DNA of 8,909 bases from a virus. The position numbers and the translations under genes are program-made. The stretch is taken from the UHGV virus genome UHGV-2009704; one strand, written 5' to 3'. Below are positions 286 through 8,909 of the stretch, piece after piece; the stretch's first letter is position 1, and each line of letters begins with the position of its first letter. The notes beneath the pieces are model-generated. The model made no database searches. It was given only the letters and a program-made list of their open reading frames with translations, and was not told where the DNA came from.

Positions 286-990
286 TCATAATGCTGCGGG
301 AGCCACGTAATAGACAATCACAAATACAGCTAATGCTCCACCTGCTCTTACCCAGTTTGATATTTTGACTTCTATAAACCCGGGTATAAATGAGACTACC
401 CCAGCAACTGCTGCTGAAAGAATTATTCGAAAGAAAGTGTATTGAAAGTTCGTTGGATTAGGTATAAATATTGCGATTATTATAAAAAGAATAACAAGTA
501 AAATGCCAAAGCTAAATGCCGCTATTCTCTCGTGTGCTTTTGTCAATTTTTCTTTTCCTTTATTGTCAAATCCATATACTGGCATATCTTCATTAACGAA
601 AAGATTCCTTATTTCTTTTGCAGAACGTTTGTCATGGGCTTTTACTATCCTTTGCATTGAAGCAAAAGCAGTGGAGCTTGGTTTAATACTATTATCATTC
701 ATTACCTCTCTATATTTTTTGTAATGAGCTAAGATAAGGTGAAGAACATCAATGCATGTTTCTGCAAGCCATTGATTCCATTGAGTATTATTTAATTCAT
801 CTACTGTTCTGTTATGTGCAGCGCAGTGTTCTAAATAGCCGAAAAAACTGTCTCCACATGAATTCACGGTATCAAAATCACATTTACCAGATAGGTAACA
901 CTCTAATGACTCAGTATATTTTTCATATAAACGCTCAATTTCTTTTTTTTGATTATCAATGATACCGTGAACATCCATATCTGATTTCAC
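286..990 (-). CDS. Hypothetical protein (234 aa) with Cys-rich N-terminal soluble domain and 2-3 C-terminal transmembrane helices; accessory (moron) gene
   Basis: Long ORF from the six-frame track. The C-terminal 70 aa form hydrophobic stretches (IAAFSFGILLVILFIIIAIFIP, FFRIILSAAVAGVVSFIPGFI, ALAVFVIVYYVAPAAL). The start is either GTG at 988-990, overlapping the upstream stop (TAGTG), or ATG at 976-978. A terminator lies downstream. I recognise no homolog. Confidence 0.6.
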   Translation of the reverse strand: MKSDMDVHGIIDNQKKEIERLYEKYTESLECYLSGKCDFDTVNSCGDSFFGYLEHCAAHNRTVDELNNTQWNQWLAETCIDVLHLILAHYKKYREVMNDNSIKPSSTAFASMQRIVKAHDKRSAKEIRNLFVNEDMPVYGFDNKGKEKLTKAHERIAAFSFGILLVILFIIIAIFIPNPTNFQYTFFRIILSAAVAGVVSFIPGFIEVKISNWVRAGGALAVFVIVYYVAPAAL

Positions 991-1265
991 TATCTTTTTT
1001 GTTGAGTGTTATTTGACTGGGATTGAATTTTTGCCAATAGCGAACTTGCTTTCGATGTATTCAATCCATTACAAATCATTCTTGTAATCGGTTTTTTGTA
1101 AATTCGATGAACGATATTTTCAACTTCAGTGATGCTTTCATTGCCACTGAGTTTTTTTATCTCATTGAACATCTCCTCCAATTGTTCATTTGTTGGATGC
1201 CATTTGATTATATCTAATTCTTCCTCTAATGCTTTTTTAAAAAGGAAAACCTGAAAAGATAACAT
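990..1265 (-). CDS. Hypothetical small protein (91 aa) with conserved C-terminal tail GLNTSKASSLLAKIQ
   Basis: ATG at 1263-1265 is preceded by the strong RBS AAGGAAAG. The stop overlaps the start of the 286-990 gene. The C-terminal tail is homologous to that of the upstream small ORF, with synonymous third-position differences. Confidence 0.55.
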   Translation of the reverse strand: MLSFQVFLFKKALEEELDIIKWHPTNEQLEEMFNEIKKLSGNESITEVENIVHRIYKKPITRMICNGLNTSKASSLLAKIQSQSNNTQQKR

Positions 1266-1266
1266 A

Positions 1267-1563
1267 TTACTTTCCTTGTGTTGGTTTAGTAGTGGATTGT
1301 TGAGCTTTTTCTAAAAGCCTTTTTGCTTTAGATGTGTCCAAACCATCTTGGGCAAAGCCTTGTTGCTTATCATTCTGTTTTTGTTCACTTTTTTTTGGCG
1401 TATTCATCAGTATATACTTTGACTCGTTTTGTTTATCTCGATGACTTACTTTTTGTTTAAGTTTTGCACAAACTAGAACGTGCAGTGTTGGTAATACTGC
1501 ACGTTTGTACCATTCGTGGTACTTAATCCTTTTGTTTGGCAGACATGAGATCTTCTGCTGCAT
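1267..1563 (-). CDS. Hypothetical Lys/Gln-rich small protein with conserved C-terminal tail GLDTSKAKRLLEKAQ; start uncertain
   Basis: The ORF ends with TAA at 1267-1269, 1 nt before the next gene's ATG. The C-terminal 20 codons are supported by paralogy with the 990-1265 tail. Alternative starts are TTG 1581, ATG 1563 (overlaps the upstream ORF by about 40 nt) or ATG 1407. Confidence 0.4.
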   Translation of the reverse strand: MQQKISCLPNKRIKYHEWYKRAVLPTLHVLVCAKLKQKVSHRDKQNESKYILMNTPKKSEQKQNDKQQGFAQDGLDTSKAKRLLEKAQQSTTKPTQGK

Positions 1564-1705
1564 CTTTAGAGTAGTTATCAATCAGATAACCTAAAATCTC
1601 TGTCCATGTAATTGTTTTTCCTAGTTTTACACTGGCATTTATAGCCAGTCGTTCTAGTTTCATTTTTCTTTCTTCCGTCACGTTATAAGTCGTGCGCTTT
1701 GCCAT
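1523..1705 (-). CDS. Putative small DNA-binding regulator (60 aa, possible ribbon-helix-helix fold), first gene of the divergent accessory operon
   Basis: Its N-terminus, MAKRTTYNVTEERKMKLERLAIN, has a beta-strand then helix pattern typical of RHH (Arc/CopG-like) proteins. It sits directly next to the divergent control region upstream of gII. The RBS is weak. Confidence 0.45.
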   Translation of the reverse strand: MAKRTTYNVTEERKMKLERLAINASVKLGKTITWTEILGYLIDNYSKDAAEDLMSAKQKD

Positions 1706-3748: not shown

Positions 3749-5029
3749 ATGAAAAGGAAAATATTAATTCTTTCCGCTGTCCTCATTTCTCCTTTTTCAC
3801 ATGCTGAGTCATGGGAAAGCATTACTAAATCCACTTATCAAAGCTCTGCCTACGCTGAAAGTAAGCAAATAACCAATCAGGATGGCTCTAAGTCAACGGT
3901 TTACTATATTGATGCTGCTATGCAGGCCTCCGCTTGTCAGGGTGCTAAATCCAGTGCTCAGAGTGTATTTACTCAGGTTAAACCAACTTATGAGGGTATC
4001 TGGCCTGATTCTGAATTCCGTCTTGTTTTTACTGGTGATTGTACTTACAGCGATTCACCAGGGCAGAAGGATAAATATTGGTCTTTAACGGCTTATATTG
4101 TTGGTGATATTCAGCGTTCTGTTCCTGATGAAAAACCTACTGACCCGACACCAGAAGAAATTTGTGAAGCGAAGCCGCCAGAAGAAGGTGTATTTAATAA
4201 TGTTGATTCATATGATGGTGGTCGTTATATCTACTATAACGGCTGTGAATATGAGGCTACTGGTGTCATTGTTTGTCAGGGTGATGGTACTGTTTGCGCT
4301 GCAACATGGAAGCCTACAGGTACTGTAGCTGACCCCTCTGATAAACCCTCAACCCCCCAAAATGGTGGTGGTGAGTCTGGCGGTGGTGAGTCTGGCGGTG
4401 GTGAGTCCGGTGGCGGTAGTTCTGGCGGTGGTGAGTCCGGTGGCGGTAGTTCTGGCGGTGGTGAGTCCGGTGGCGGTAGTTCTGGCGGTGGCTTTAGTGG
4501 TTCCAGTCTTTCTAAAGGTGATATTCAGTCTGCTATCGAAGGTGCTTCACCCAAAATAGCCAGCGATATTCATGATAAATTAACGGAGAAAGACACTTCA
4601 TCAGATGATAAAAAAAATGCCGATGAACAAACTAGGAATAATATAAATCGTCTTGACGATTCCATTAACAATCTTACGCGGGGGGCTGGCCGTTTTGCTG
4701 ACCCTTCAGGTGGTGATTCTCGTTATGGAAAGGGCGACTCTGAATTAGATGGCGCTTCTACTTTGGCTGATTCTGAATTGGGAATTGAAAAGGATTCTCA
4801 CGGTGCTTTATGGGAAGCATTTTTAAATAAAGGTGCTATGCTGCCTAATTTACCCAATGGTAACGGCTGCTCTGATTTTATTATTTTTCCCGGAGAGGTT
4901 TATCAGATTGATATTGGTTGCGATAAATTACTGACTATTAAAGATGTTCTTTCATGGGTTTTTTATTGCCTTACGTTCTGGTATGTCTTTACTTCTTTAA
5001 CTTCATTGCTTCGCAAAGGGGGTGAGTGA
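3749..5029 (+). CDS. gIII: Minor coat / host-attachment protein pIII (426 aa)
   Basis: Signal peptide [19 protein letters not shown], a Gly-rich linker of ([10 protein letters not shown]) repeats, and a C-terminal membrane anchor IGCDKLL...[17 protein letters not shown] resembling IKe/Ff pIII. Its stop overlaps the gVI start. Confidence 0.9.
4367..4486 (+). repeat. Tandem coding repeats in the gIII glycine-rich linker
   Basis: Two 15-bp units GGTGGTGAGTCTGGC (4367-4396) are followed by three perfect 30-bp units GGTGGTGAGTCCGGTGGCGGTAGTTCTGGC (4397-4426, 4427-4456, 4457-4486). Confidence 0.9.
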
Positions 5030-6472: not shown

Positions 6473-7738
6473 ATGCGCTCTGTTATTGTTGCTTTTTTAT
6501 TTGCCTGTTCATTCTGCGTTTCTGCTGAAACTGTTAATTTAAACAATTCATCTGTTCGCTCATTTGTTCAGTGGTATTCTTCAAAAACTGGCAAGCCTGT
6601 TATTGTTAATCCTGATATTAAAGGAAACGTAACCGTATTTAATGCTGATGTTAATCCAACAAATATTGATGATTTCTTTAAGTCTGTTCTGAATGCTAAC
6701 GGTTTTGTCATGCTTTCTGGCAATCCTGCGGTAGTCTCTTTGCCGTCTAAATTACCTTCACAGATGGTTTCGGATTCCGATGATTCTGATAACCAGTCTT
6801 ATGATACTTTTCCTTCTGAGCCATCTTACCAGCCAGTACCTGTGGCGCTTACGGTCAGAAATTTTAAGCTGACAAAAGTTAGATCGTCCGATGTTCAGCA
6901 ACTGATTAAAATTTATCTTGATTCTAATGGTGGTGGTAATGTCGTGGATTATCCAGGCAATAACTCGCTGATTGTTTCTGCGCCTGACGAGCTGCTGCCG
7001 GTTCTGTCCGATTTTATCAATTCTGTGGATGTTGCCCGCGATCAGGTTCTCATTCAGTCGCTGATGTTTGAAACCAGCTTGTCTGATGGCGTTGATTTAT
7101 CGTTTGCGGCAGGTTCTGCATCCGGTCATAAGGTTGCGGGGGGCTTTAATACTTCTGCACTGGGTAGCGCTCTTTCTACGGCGGGCGGTTCTTTTGGTAT
7201 TTTTGATGGTAACGTGTTGGCGCTGTCTCTGCGTGCTGTCCAGAGTAATTCACGCTCTAAGGTGATTTCAACGCCGCGTATTCTTACTCAGTCTGGTCAG
7301 ACTGGTTACATTTCCGTAGGTAAGAATGTGCCGTTTATCACCGGAAAGGTAACGGGCGAATCTGCCGGGGTAAATAATCCGTTTCAGACTATCGAGCGTC
7401 ATGATGTTGGCGTTTCTCTCAAGGTAACGCCTGTTGTCATGGGTAACGGGCAACTAGTTCTGACTATCGACACTCGCGCTGATTCAATCAGCAATGATGA
7501 TCAGGCATCCGATATTATTACTAATCAGCGCCAGATTCAGACGACAGTCCAGATTAAGGATGGTCAGACGTTGTTATTGGGGGGGCTTATCGATTCATCG
7601 TTTAGCAATGCTGAGCGTTCAGTTCCAGTTATAAGTAAAATTCCTCTTATAGGCTGGATTTTCAGTAGCAAGGCAGACAGCAATGAACAGCGTATTATGT
7701 ATATTTTGCTTACAGCACATATCATTCGTCCACTTTGA
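6473..7738 (+). CDS. gIV: Outer-membrane secretin pIV (421 aa)
   Basis: Signal peptide MRSVIVAFLFACSFCVSA and strong recalled similarity to M13 pIV (SFAAGS, GGSFGIF, PRILT, VPFITGKVTGESAGVNNPFQTIER, GQTLLLGGL, SKIPLIG). RBS is AGGAG. Confidence 0.9.
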   Translation: MRSVIVAFLFACSFCVSAETVNLNNSSVRSFVQWYSSKTGKPVIVNPDIKGNVTVFNADVNPTNIDDFFKSVLNANGFVMLSGNPAVVSLPSKLPSQMVSDSDDSDNQSYDTFPSEPSYQPVPVALTVRNFKLTKVRSSDVQQLIKIYLDSNGGGNVVDYPGNNSLIVSAPDELLPVLSDFINSVDVARDQVLIQSLMFETSLSDGVDLSFAAGSASGHKVAGGFNTSALGSALSTAGGSFGIFDGNVLALSLRAVQSNSRSKVISTPRILTQSGQTGYISVGKNVPFITGKVTGESAGVNNPFQTIERHDVGVSLKVTPVVMGNGQLVLTIDTRADSISNDDQASDIITNQRQIQTTVQIKDGQTLLLGGLIDSSFSNAERSVPVISKIPLIGWIFSSKADSNEQRIMYILLTAHIIRPL

Positions 7739-7779
7739 TGGATAGCGGGTAGGTGCGTGAGCCCTGCTCGCTATCCATC
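7737..7779. other. Imperfect hairpin immediately after gIV (candidate packaging signal or ssDNA structural element)
   Basis: GATGGATAGCG (7737-7747) pairs with CGCTATCCATC (7769-7779), with further imperfect pairing inward and a 9-nt loop. No T-tract follows, so it is not a canonical intrinsic terminator. Confidence 0.5.
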
Positions 7780-7807
7780 AAATGGACATTATTGATTGGG
7801 GTAACTA

Positions 7808-8116
7808 ATGGATTCTTATGGGATTTTATCTGCTCTGGCAGAACGAACGATTACAGCGGAAGAAGCAAAAACAATGACACTTGCAGCCAGAAGTTCTTCG
7901 GCTCAGGTAAATGAAGCATCACTTGCTCTGTTACTGATTGATAATACTCTGGATGCGATCAAAGCAGCTGCCAGTGAAGGGAAAGGATACACTTTACTTC
8001 CTTCTTATGAGATTTCTTTAAAAGCCATTGATTTAGCAGAAGAATTTTTAAGGAAACAATGCGGCTATGTTATTGATAACCAGAATGGCGTAAGGACGGT
8101 CTATTGGTTTATATGA
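7808..8116 (+). CDS. Hypothetical protein (102 aa), accessory ORF downstream of gIV
   Basis: ORF from the six-frame track with a possible weak RBS (GGGGT). It has no transmembrane segment and I recognise no homolog. It lies inside the prophage between gIV and attR. Confidence 0.5.
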   Translation: MDSYGILSALAERTITAEEAKTMTLAARSSSAQVNEASLALLLIDNTLDAIKAAASEGKGYTLLPSYEISLKAIDLAEEFLRKQCGYVIDNQNGVRTVYWFI

Positions 8117-8117
8117 T

Positions 8118-8162
8118 AACCCCGGACAGTGACAAAACTTGCTTTTGTTAGTGTCCGGGGTT
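8118..8162. other. Long imperfect hairpin (about 20-bp stem) between the two distal accessory ORFs; candidate origin or packaging-signal structure
   Basis: AACCCCGGACAGTGACAAAA (8118-8137) pairs with TTTTGTTAGTGTCCGGGGTT (8143-8162), with one mismatch and one G-T pair, and a 5-nt loop. It starts 2 nt after the stop of the 7808-8116 ORF. A T-run follows at about 8183-8190. Confidence 0.55.
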
Positions 8163-8233
8163 GGCCAAGCCGAACAATTCTGTTTTTTTAGCGTTATTGC
8201 TGATTCGGCGCGGCAGCATTACGAGGAGATAAA

Positions 8234-8467
8234 ATGCAATTTTTCACATCCAGCGATACTGTAATGTTATGTGCGAAGACCTGCGATCGCTGTGGTCGCC
8301 ATGCGAAGACGGTGGTAGATGACATTGAGTTCAATGAGTTTCTGTCTGTTAATCACTTAGCTGGATACGGTTCAATTTTTGGTGACAGTAATCGCTTAAA
8401 ACTGGATTTATGCCAACATTGCCTGAAAGACGTCCTGGGCCAGTGGATTACGGTCTGTGACCAATGA
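8234..8467 (+). CDS. Hypothetical small protein (77 aa) with two CxxC pairs (possible zinc ribbon)
   Basis: Strong RBS GAGGAG 5 nt upstream of the ATG. Cys pairs are CDRC (residues 17-20) and CQHC (60-63). It ends 38 nt before the dif site. Confidence 0.6.
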   Translation: MQFFTSSDTVMLCAKTCDRCGRHAKTVVDDIEFNEFLSVNHLAGYGSIFGDSNRLKLDLCQHCLKDVLGQWITVCDQ

Positions 8468-8505
8468 CGGCACCGGTAACGCCAGTTCCCACCATCCTTA
8501 CCATT

Positions 8506-8533
8506 GGTGCGCATAATGTATATTATGTTAAAT
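8506..8533. other. attR: canonical 28-bp dif site (XerC arm GGTGCGCATAA, central TGTATA, XerD arm TTATGTTAAAT)
   Basis: Exact match to the enterobacterial dif core sequence as I recall it. It is a direct repeat of the left dif-like site. Confidence 0.85.
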
Positions 8534-8909
8534 ATGGTGGGTTTGTTCTTAAGTTCATGTGTTCCGCTCTTTCAGTAGCTTAACTGATGAATCAGTCAGC
8601 AGCTTTTGCCGTGCAAGCTACGCGGCGGTTCGTACCAGATTGGCCACCTCCATCTCCTGGTTCGCTTTCCCCTCCCCCCGGTAAACCTCACCCAACGTTA
8701 ATTAATGATGTCAGTATGTGGGCGCTATCCTTGTATGTAAAATCCACTGACGATTACGCCCATCTGTGAAAAAAAACTCACAATGCCATTCGATGCATCT
8801 CCATACCGAACGAGGCGTTATCGTCTTTATCGCCCCGTAGTGGATATCAGAAAATCAATCAGGGCCTTCACTCTTTTCGTTTTACCCGCGTTTTTGGGGT
8901 AATAGAGAT

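Follow-up and report, generated by a model that had tools for sequence, protein, structure and literature searches.

What does a filamentous phage carry at the end of its genome, between its last morphogenesis gene and its attachment site? In Ff phages, the DNA that follows gIV is an intergenic region holding the packaging hairpin A and the minus-origin hairpins B and C, and no genes. The question is raised by UHGV virus genome UHGV-2009704, an 8,909-nucleotide stretch of DNA (hereafter the window, meaning this whole stretch), which corresponds to an inovirus (filamentous phage) prophage of Escherichia coli integrated at dif, the chromosome dimer-resolution site. An earlier note, made from the letters of the window, had described two open reading frames (ORFs) of 102 and 77 amino acids (aa) between the secretin gene gIV and attR, ORF102 and ORF77, the latter with two CxxC pairs suggestive of a zinc ribbon and with a strong ribosome-binding site, the two being separated by a long hairpin. 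Here, we followed up this observation by comparative genomics, profile searches, structure prediction and nucleic acid folding. Our results make it likely that the end of this genome is a cargo region, in which ORF102, an orphan protein, occupies a first slot, ORF77, a predicted zinc domain, occupies a second one, and the hairpins are cis-acting elements.

Results

Two conserved genes follow gIV

Both ORFs are found on the plus strand at the location described in the earlier note (Table 1), and both are annotated as hypothetical proteins in RefSeq. Spurious ORFs of 60-100 codons are plentiful in the window; as ORFs of such size are common by chance, the reality of these two rests on their conservation. 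Analysis of the ratio of nonsynonymous to synonymous substitution rates (dN/dS) revealed purifying selection on both coding sequences, with values of 0.13 for ORF102, compared with its homologue in a Salmonella phage (61% aa identity), and of 0.06 for ORF77, compared with a homologue from a metagenomic contig (71% aa identity). Among more distant ORF77 homologues the synonymous sites are saturated and the protein is kept. ORF102 and ORF77 are real genes. The opposite reading, namely that they are chance frames in a non-coding intergenic region whose only real content is the hairpins, could draw on the absence of genes at this place in Ff and on the many spurious ORFs of similar size; it is already refuted by the conservation pattern, which combines these dN/dS values and saturated synonymous sites with hundreds of diverged ORF77 homologues retaining invariant residues and with a confident structure model, and we regard its probability as practically nil. 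The segment is coding where that of Ff is non-coding, with the amendment that it also keeps conserved hairpins of the intergenic type. The strong ribosome-binding site of ORF77 corresponds to an AGGAG placed five bases 5' of its ATG.

As initially suspected, neither ORF resembles a structural or replication protein of Ff or other inoviruses in Pfam, NCBIfam, PHROG and phage-genome searches. No replication, coat, assembly or secretion homologue (pI-pXI) was detected for either of them in Pfam or NCBIfam, and Pfam, NCBIfam and PADLOC returned no family for either ORF, with sub-threshold noise only. Likewise, tblastn and blastn gave no match in 50,697 deposited phage records, using as query the window ORFs or a diverged member of the ORF77 family. 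A literature search retrieved no functional studies for the protein accessions, for the PHROG identifiers or for YPO2280a/YPO2281, two ORFs of phage YpfPhi that are considered below.

Related phages exchange the two genes independently

The comparison with related elements provides the main evidence on the nature of this segment. A Salmonella relative, whose core proteins are 80-93% identical to those of the window phage except for g3, keeps an ORF102 homologue (ORF103) and the hairpin module, which are followed by ~400 non-coding bases up to dif. Inoviruses of Phytobacter and Klebsiella, as well as a remnant on a Klebsiella plasmid, carry an ORF77 homologue and no ORF102. In phage CUS-1 the two slots hold unrelated ORFs of 82 and 65 aa, and in phage A28 slot 2 alone is occupied, by a 60-aa fragment similar to the N-terminal portion of HI1420-type antidotes. 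Homology of ORF102 or ORF77 to the CUS-1 slot genes was considered and discarded, BLASTP giving either no alignment or E = 1.0, and homology to the A28 slot gene was rejected by sequence comparison.

Since the two genes occur separately, and are absent or replaced in close relatives, they represent separate cargo, and neither a pair nor core functions. We consider it quite probable that the segment from gIV to attP is a cargo region, formed by two independent and exchangeable slots that are interleaved with cis-acting DNA structures. This pattern of exchangeable passengers makes an essential phage function unlikely, and both ORFs would be dispensable for replication, secretion and virion production, as judged from natural variation. 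Regarding conservation among dif-integrated inoviruses, a point raised in the earlier note, ORF77 homologues are present in several backbones, and the gene is absent or replaced in the Salmonella phage, CUS-1 and A28.

Two side observations concern the occupant of slot 2 in A28. In this tandem inovirus (L011 9118-9300 and 17655-17837), the gene matches the N-terminal 43 positions of the antidote only, with an E of 8e-5, below the Pfam threshold. The same HI1420 segment also follows an ORF77-type domain within a single betaproteobacterial protein (L040).

ORF77 is a predicted zinc finger from a widespread, unnamed family

ORF77 matched phrog_5435, a group of 'unknown function' (E 4.5e-46, positions 1-77 of 96). 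In an alignment of 81 sequences, residues C20, E35, D51, C60, Q61 and C63 are invariant, and C17, D18, E32, G44, S47, F49, G50, D58, L59, H62, L68 and W71 are conserved in at least 90%, resulting in the family signature CDRCG ... E.xE ... AGYGSxFGDG ... DLCQHC..xLG.W. The two CxxC pairs noticed earlier (CDRC, residues 17-20, and CQHC, residues 60-63) would provide four ligands in two knuckles, the arrangement of zinc ribbons and treble clefs. An AlphaFold (AF2) model with a predicted local distance difference test (pLDDT) score of 88 displays a beta-hairpin knuckle bearing the first CxxC, two more strands, and a helix starting from the second CxxC, which are the elements of a treble clef. ORF77 is very probably a zinc-binding finger, as judged from its conserved residues and this model; the zinc-ribbon-like character proposed earlier is borne out by the four conserved cysteines and the predicted knuckle and helix, and the fold is better described as treble-clef-like. 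The core domain is net-negative in 90% of the 81 members, with a mean charge of -3.3, which argues for protein binding over nucleic-acid binding. The zinc-finger antitoxin domain of MqsA/YgiT was tried as a candidate relative and rejected, with an hhalign probability of 0.8% for the N-terminal domain of an MqsA sequence entered by hand.

The single-sequence search with ORF77 recovered 14 close relatives only, and a profile built from six of its relatives recovered at least 1,656 cluster representatives; the domain travels on phages, plasmids and integrative elements. Scans of genomes and IMG/VR placed the family in Gamma- and Betaproteobacteria, Desulfobacterota, Bacteroidota, Thermotogota, Nitrospirota, Chloroflexota and some archaeal bins, and in viral contigs of all sizes, including one lineage in which it lies between the terminase and portal genes of a tailed phage; it was not found in the ~50,000 deposited phage genomes. 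At least five non-redundant loci have inovirus pI (Zot) and pIV genes upstream and ORF77 as the last gene before attP/dif. This order is seen in the window phage, a Phytobacter phage whose secretin is of the CUS-1 type, a Klebsiella inovirus that has a Rep_trans initiator, a decayed copy borne by Klebsiella virulence plasmids, and a further IMG/VR lineage. A stand-alone homologue is present on small plasmids of Proteus and Providencia, in one case beside a SIR2 gene. Adjacency to a Xer site was considered as a trait of the whole family and discarded, for it holds for the inovirus copies only.

Longer relatives (100-255 aa) have a C-terminal extension added to the domain. Some of these extensions correspond to parts of antitoxins (Xre_MbcA_ParS_C/NF049845; an HI1420-antidote segment, dnstrm_HI1420; DUF4926), and such fusions are the only lead to a function. 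Two-gene operons are formed by several of the long forms, which overlap or directly adjoin the next gene, encoding an SNase-like protein or proteins of 97 and 111 aa with no assigned family. Apart from inovirus pI and pIV, no recurrent partner gene was found in 94 non-redundant loci. ORF77 itself has no PF09722 domain and no toxin gene in its operon; with neither a toxin-binding domain nor an adjacent toxin, it is not a member of an antitoxin family. We read it as the probable bare 'head' domain of a family that often serves as the N-terminal module of antitoxin-like proteins.

A gene for anti-defence in plasmid leading regions was also considered for ORF77, as contig L002 first looked like such a case, and was rejected: L002 has the inovirus hairpin module as well, and a general association with leading regions was not observed. 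This plasmid-like metagenomic contig (ParM/StbA, UmuDC, ParB) displays at 3962-4458 the hairpin module, an ORF77 homologue, and then an unrelated 77-aa coiled-coil ORF. As no inovirus genes lie nearby, the hairpin and an ORF77-type gene can move as one unit.

ORF102 is a fast-evolving orphan

ORF102 matched phrog_4115, also of 'unknown function', over its full length (E 2.9e-68, positions 1-102 of 102), and nothing in Pfam, NCBIfam, PADLOC, the PDB or deposited phages. An exhaustive profile search of 1.84 billion representative proteins found 7, all but one of them being the same gene or its fragments. Wherever the context is available, the gene lies directly after gIV in its phage lineage. 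Between the window and the Salmonella phage, ORF102 is 60% identical and the receptor-binding g3 is 52% identical, in comparison with 80-93% for gII, gV, g7, g8, g6, g1 and gIV, and the changes in ORF102 cluster in its first 35 residues. The protein has an isoelectric point of 4.7 and no membrane segment, and its AlphaFold model, built from six sequences and of moderate confidence (pLDDT 73), consists of three helices followed by a beta-alpha-beta-beta unit. ORF102 is a fast-evolving, acidic cytoplasmic protein restricted to its phage lineage, and from its sequence pattern we consider it a putative lineage-specific factor for interaction with the host or the phage.

Conserved hairpins flank the genes

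The long hairpin reported between the two ORFs was recovered as a 45-nucleotide (nt) structure, and the fold of positions 8105-8235 has a z score of -5.2 against shuffled sequences. It constitutes the first hairpin of a two-hairpin module (hairpins 1 and 2 in Table 1). In the 18 pairs of hairpin 1, 93% of the alignment cells are paired, and compensatory changes occur in 7 of the 18, in comparison with 0-1 in slid controls. All 8 sequences share a G.T wobble, which implies that the plus strand, unlike its complement, favours the structure. The module occurs in all the dif-integrated backbones examined, and in at least five inovirus backbones, whatever ORF follows it, or none; it is, thus, a cis element of the phage and not merely a leader of ORF77.

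A homologue of hairpin 1 was identified just downstream of traT in ~4,485 F-type plasmids, with 82% identity over 58 nt including flanks (window 8118-8214; L013 8001-8058; L144 2501-2573 for the module and its homologues). The polarity of F transfer is established. Because the gene order traD-traT-traS-traG lies on the opposite strand, and given this transfer polarity, the orientation in F that is equivalent to the inovirus plus strand is that of the T-strand and not of the tra mRNA. The F-plasmid copy folds at -19.6 kcal/mol on the T-strand vs -14.5 kcal/mol on the other. Accordingly, the module displays a conserved and strand-specific structure on the packaged strand, which is the mark of minus origins and of single-strand initiation (ssi) signals. 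The F hairpin is not known to correspond to any named ssi element. In a review, plasmid ssi signals are described as functionally comparable to single-strand origins (PMC7690428), which favours a signal for complementary-strand priming. By this analogy, the module would most likely be a plus-strand signal on single-stranded DNA (ssDNA), that is, an origin for the complementary (minus) strand.

In the Salmonella relative, a compensatory change (A-T to C-G) preserves hairpin A, at the end of gIV, and the Klebsiella inovirus has another hairpin at this position. By analogy of position, hairpin A is the best candidate for a packaging signal or a terminator. A scan of positions 7600-8600 found no intrinsic terminator and one sigma-70 promoter-like site, inside dif itself, and Rfam returned no family for the region at E up to 1.

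The prophage and its setting

The left neighbour of the prophage is hipA and the right one a LysR-family pseudogene; the right end of the prophage carries an exact match to the perfect 28-bp E. coli dif, GGTGCGCATAATGTATATTATGTTAAAT. The plus-strand gene order is gII, gV, g7, g8, g3, g6, g1 and gIV, with a short leftward regulatory and cargo arm upstream. The circular replicative form of this phage, of 7,938 bp, has been deposited as a Salmonella 'plasmid' (L014) and contains both ORFs. At the left junction (~189-285), two dif-like sites are found in inverted orientation around a GC-rich hairpin, the same layout as the attP of L014 (2030-2125). This arrangement is CTX-like, one dif-like site having an enlarged central region and the second one being inverted, and a CTX-type attP layout has been proposed for YpfPhi (PMC4266046). 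On the minus strand, the GC-rich hairpin also resembles an intrinsic terminator for the leftward genes. In a comparison with the CUS-1-type prophage of UTI89, gII and gV show 85-93% identity and the assembly genes only ~22%, which indicates that the phage is of mosaic make-up and related to CUS-1/YpfPhi. Of 5,426 complete E. coli genomes, 49 contain the whole end region at ≥99% identity, and it is also found in Salmonella, Klebsiella and Citrobacter.

Table 1. Features at the right end of the prophage (window coordinates).
Feature	Position	Strand	Evidence
gIV (secretin), last core morphogenesis gene, left border of the cargo segment	6473..7738	+	RefSeq annotation of identical prophage; Pfam Secretin families in Salmonella relative
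Hairpin A, over the gIV stop codon, candidate packaging signal or terminator	7730..7785	+	ssDNA fold -21.8 kcal/mol, z -7.15
ORF102 (cargo slot 1), acidic 102-aa orphan, phrog_4115, ATG start	7808..8116	+	
Hairpin 1 of the two-hairpin module, 18-22 bp stem, invariant G.T wobble	8118..8162	+	Covariation and fold
Hairpin 2 of the module, one base after hairpin 1	8164..8214	+	Folds of window, L007, L012, L019 and L010; sequence variable, position kept
Shine-Dalgarno AGGAG of ORF77	8224..8228	+	Read from sequence; conserved in L002 and L034
ORF77 (cargo slot 2), acidic 77-aa protein, predicted treble-clef-like zinc finger, phrog_5435	8234..8467	+	Selection, conserved Cys, model, position
attR: phage-derived attP arm plus reconstituted dif (8506-8533)	8468..8533	+	Exact dif match; same junction in L014 1995-2050

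Further variation was observed elsewhere in the element. The cargo of the left arm varies between otherwise near-identical phages (window 286-1705, minus strand; L014 2138-2872): that of the window encodes a 234-aa protein with C-terminal membrane segments and a 91-aa ORF, and that of the Salmonella episome a 244-aa Fic/Doc-family protein with no obvious antitoxin. The glycine-rich linker of g3 (window ~4300-4500) is variable in length, being 45 nt longer in the window than in the otherwise identical BH100N prophage. In decayed prophages, the N-terminus of gII continues in-frame into a C-terminal portion, that of ORF102 in Citrobacter and that of ORF77 in a common Logan contig representing a cluster of 70 sequences (L146 2807-3142 and L145 386-703); these prophages have lost all the morphogenesis genes and keep the left arm, and L146 retains ORF77 as well. 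Finally, contig L033 (JARKOR010000214.1), labelled as a metagenome-assembled genome (MAG) of Candidatus Nanosynbacter, carries 100% identical ORF77, ORF102 and an exact E. coli dif; it almost certainly comes from an enterobacterium and was mis-binned into a Saccharibacteria MAG.

Discussion

The natural variation of the gIV-to-attP segment favours a cargo region over the other functions that could be assigned to two small genes at a prophage end. An anti-defence or host-takeover role, in which ORF77, ORF102 or both would bind a conserved component of the host (for example, a defence effector, toxin or signalling nucleotide), is in agreement with two small and acidic proteins borne by mobile elements, with no conserved partner and a wide host range, with the fast evolution of ORF102, with the conserved Gly-rich loop of ORF77, which suggests a site for a ligand or partner, and with the homologue beside SIR2 on small Proteus plasmids; all of this is purely circumstantial, neither PADLOC nor any known anti-defence protein gave a match, the neighbours are not enriched in defence genes and the family is missing from deposited phage genomes, so that we hold this role to be rather improbable. 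Somewhat more doubtful is a sequence-specific DNA-binding regulator, with the zinc finger of ORF77 replacing the helix-turn-helix (HTH) of Xre-type antitoxins and repressors and acting on phage or host promoters, for instance in the attP/left-arm region. Against it stand the acidic core in nine tenths of the members, a conservation that is strongest in the Gly-rich loop and acidic residues, with no basic surface, and the fused forms of 235-255 aa, which have a separate HTH-like stretch besides the domain (identified by eye, with no model score).

Two further readings start from the position of the genes. That ORF102 and ORF77 are a toxin-antitoxin addiction pair stabilising the prophage is suggested by the adjacency of two small genes at its end, by the frequency of toxin-antitoxin modules in inoviruses and by the ORF77 relatives with antitoxin-type fusions. 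Nevertheless, each gene occurs alone in natural relatives, the 117-nt structured spacer between them is conserved even with different flanking ORFs, and no toxin family matches ORF102, which leaves such a pair very unlikely. Similarly, ORF77 is the closest gene to attP, 38 nt from dif, in several dif-integrating backbones, as could be expected of an accessory factor of Xer recombination, similar to XafT, that aids integration or excision at dif; however, ORF77 has no match to DUF3653 (XafT) or any other Pfam family at E up to 1, most members of its family have no nearby Xer site (those in tailed phages, in two-gene operons, and in small plasmids where a cer-like site lies kilobases away), and the dif-integrated relatives L007, CUS-1 and A28 have no ORF77, and we give this function hardly any credence.

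A cargo region with two exchangeable slots and cis-acting hairpins therefore remains our preferred reading, and several points weigh against one or another part of it. In one small clade of the ORF77 family (P0008), Ser replaces C17; no toxin gene adjoins ORF77 in the window; and the antitoxin-type link stems from a minority of fused relatives, PF09722 having been found in 3 of the 120 matches listed and in 2 of the 20 long forms scanned. The dispensability of both genes is drawn from natural variation, and the ORF102 model is of moderate confidence, with an alignment of six sequences. The assignment of the module as a minus origin is reached by analogy and strand logic. The title of Jalajakumari 1987, as cited in PMC7690428, announces terminator activity in the traS/traT region, and the F homologue sits at the place of this reported traT terminator, so that the module may have a terminator-type role instead; as it derives from one shared ancestry, the argument from orientation is worth little more than a coin toss.

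Beyond the cargo region itself, the specific mechanism we propose for the cargo proteins is tentative, and we would rate it below even chances. ORF77, whose translation probably starts from the strong ribosome-binding site of its own that follows the two-hairpin module, might be a small, acidic module that binds a partner protein, as inhibitors and antitoxins do, and not DNA. The hairpins, in turn, would serve as packaging signal and minus origin, which in Ff lie together in a single intergenic region with no interruption. A bolder extension, which we consider unlikely, is that ORF77 represents the founding member of a widespread family of zinc-finger inhibitors of mobile elements, neutralising a host toxin or defence component, and that the module is a priming signal common to inoviruses and the F T-strand.

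The novelty of these findings is modest, and the layout of the cargo region was already known. A large survey of inoviruses found toxin-antitoxin and other host-interaction cargo to be common. E. coli K1 and Y. pestis gain a modest fitness advantage in animals from dif-integrated filamentous prophages of the CUS-1/YpfPhi type, and the reviewers of YpfPhi (PMC4266046) point to the end-of-genome ORFs as the place to seek the cause. The results presented here resolve this end region into what are probably two exchangeable cargo slots flanked by conserved structured DNA. They also define the ORF77 family, with more than 1,600 protein clusters in many bacterial phyla, no name or Pfam model, and repeated joining to antitoxin modules, and so offer a testable handle on a common but little-studied mobile-element protein. 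The hairpin common to thousands of F plasmids is, likewise, a cheap candidate for a common signal on single-stranded DNA.

Comparison with known systems

The closest parallel is found in YpfPhi/CUS-1, for which a review (PMC4266046) describes two ORFs of unknown function (YPO2280a and YPO2281) next to attR, at the position that ctxAB occupies in CTXphi; as these attR-adjacent ORFs had already been described, the architecture is not new. The window shares with them two small ORFs, placed after the secretin gene and before attR in an enterobacterial inovirus integrated at dif, with the same hairpin module in between, and differs in that the ORFs have no sequence similarity and the morphogenesis genes are ~22% identical, in comparison with 85-93% for gII and gV. 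As ctxAB in CTXphi, ORF102 and ORF77 are passenger genes at the genome end, beside a CTX-type attP of two inverted dif-like sites, but they are not toxins and have no homology to ctxAB.

With type II antitoxins (Xre/MbcA/ParS, PF09722; HI1420 antidote) ORF77 has in common its small size and acidic character, and some of its relatives have these segments at their C-terminus or belong to tight two-gene operons; ORF77 itself, in contrast, is a bare zinc domain with no toxin-binding module, no adjacent toxin and no partner conserved across the family. The hairpin located downstream of traT in F resembles hairpin 1 in sequence (82% over 58 nt) and in its plus-strand orientation, equivalent to T-strand polarity, whereas in F it lies at the reported traT terminator and in the opposite transcriptional sense. 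Finally, the window resembles Ff in having a hairpin straight after gIV and then two adjacent hairpins structured on the plus strand; unlike in Ff, these elements, which have no sequence similarity to those of Ff, are interrupted by two genes.

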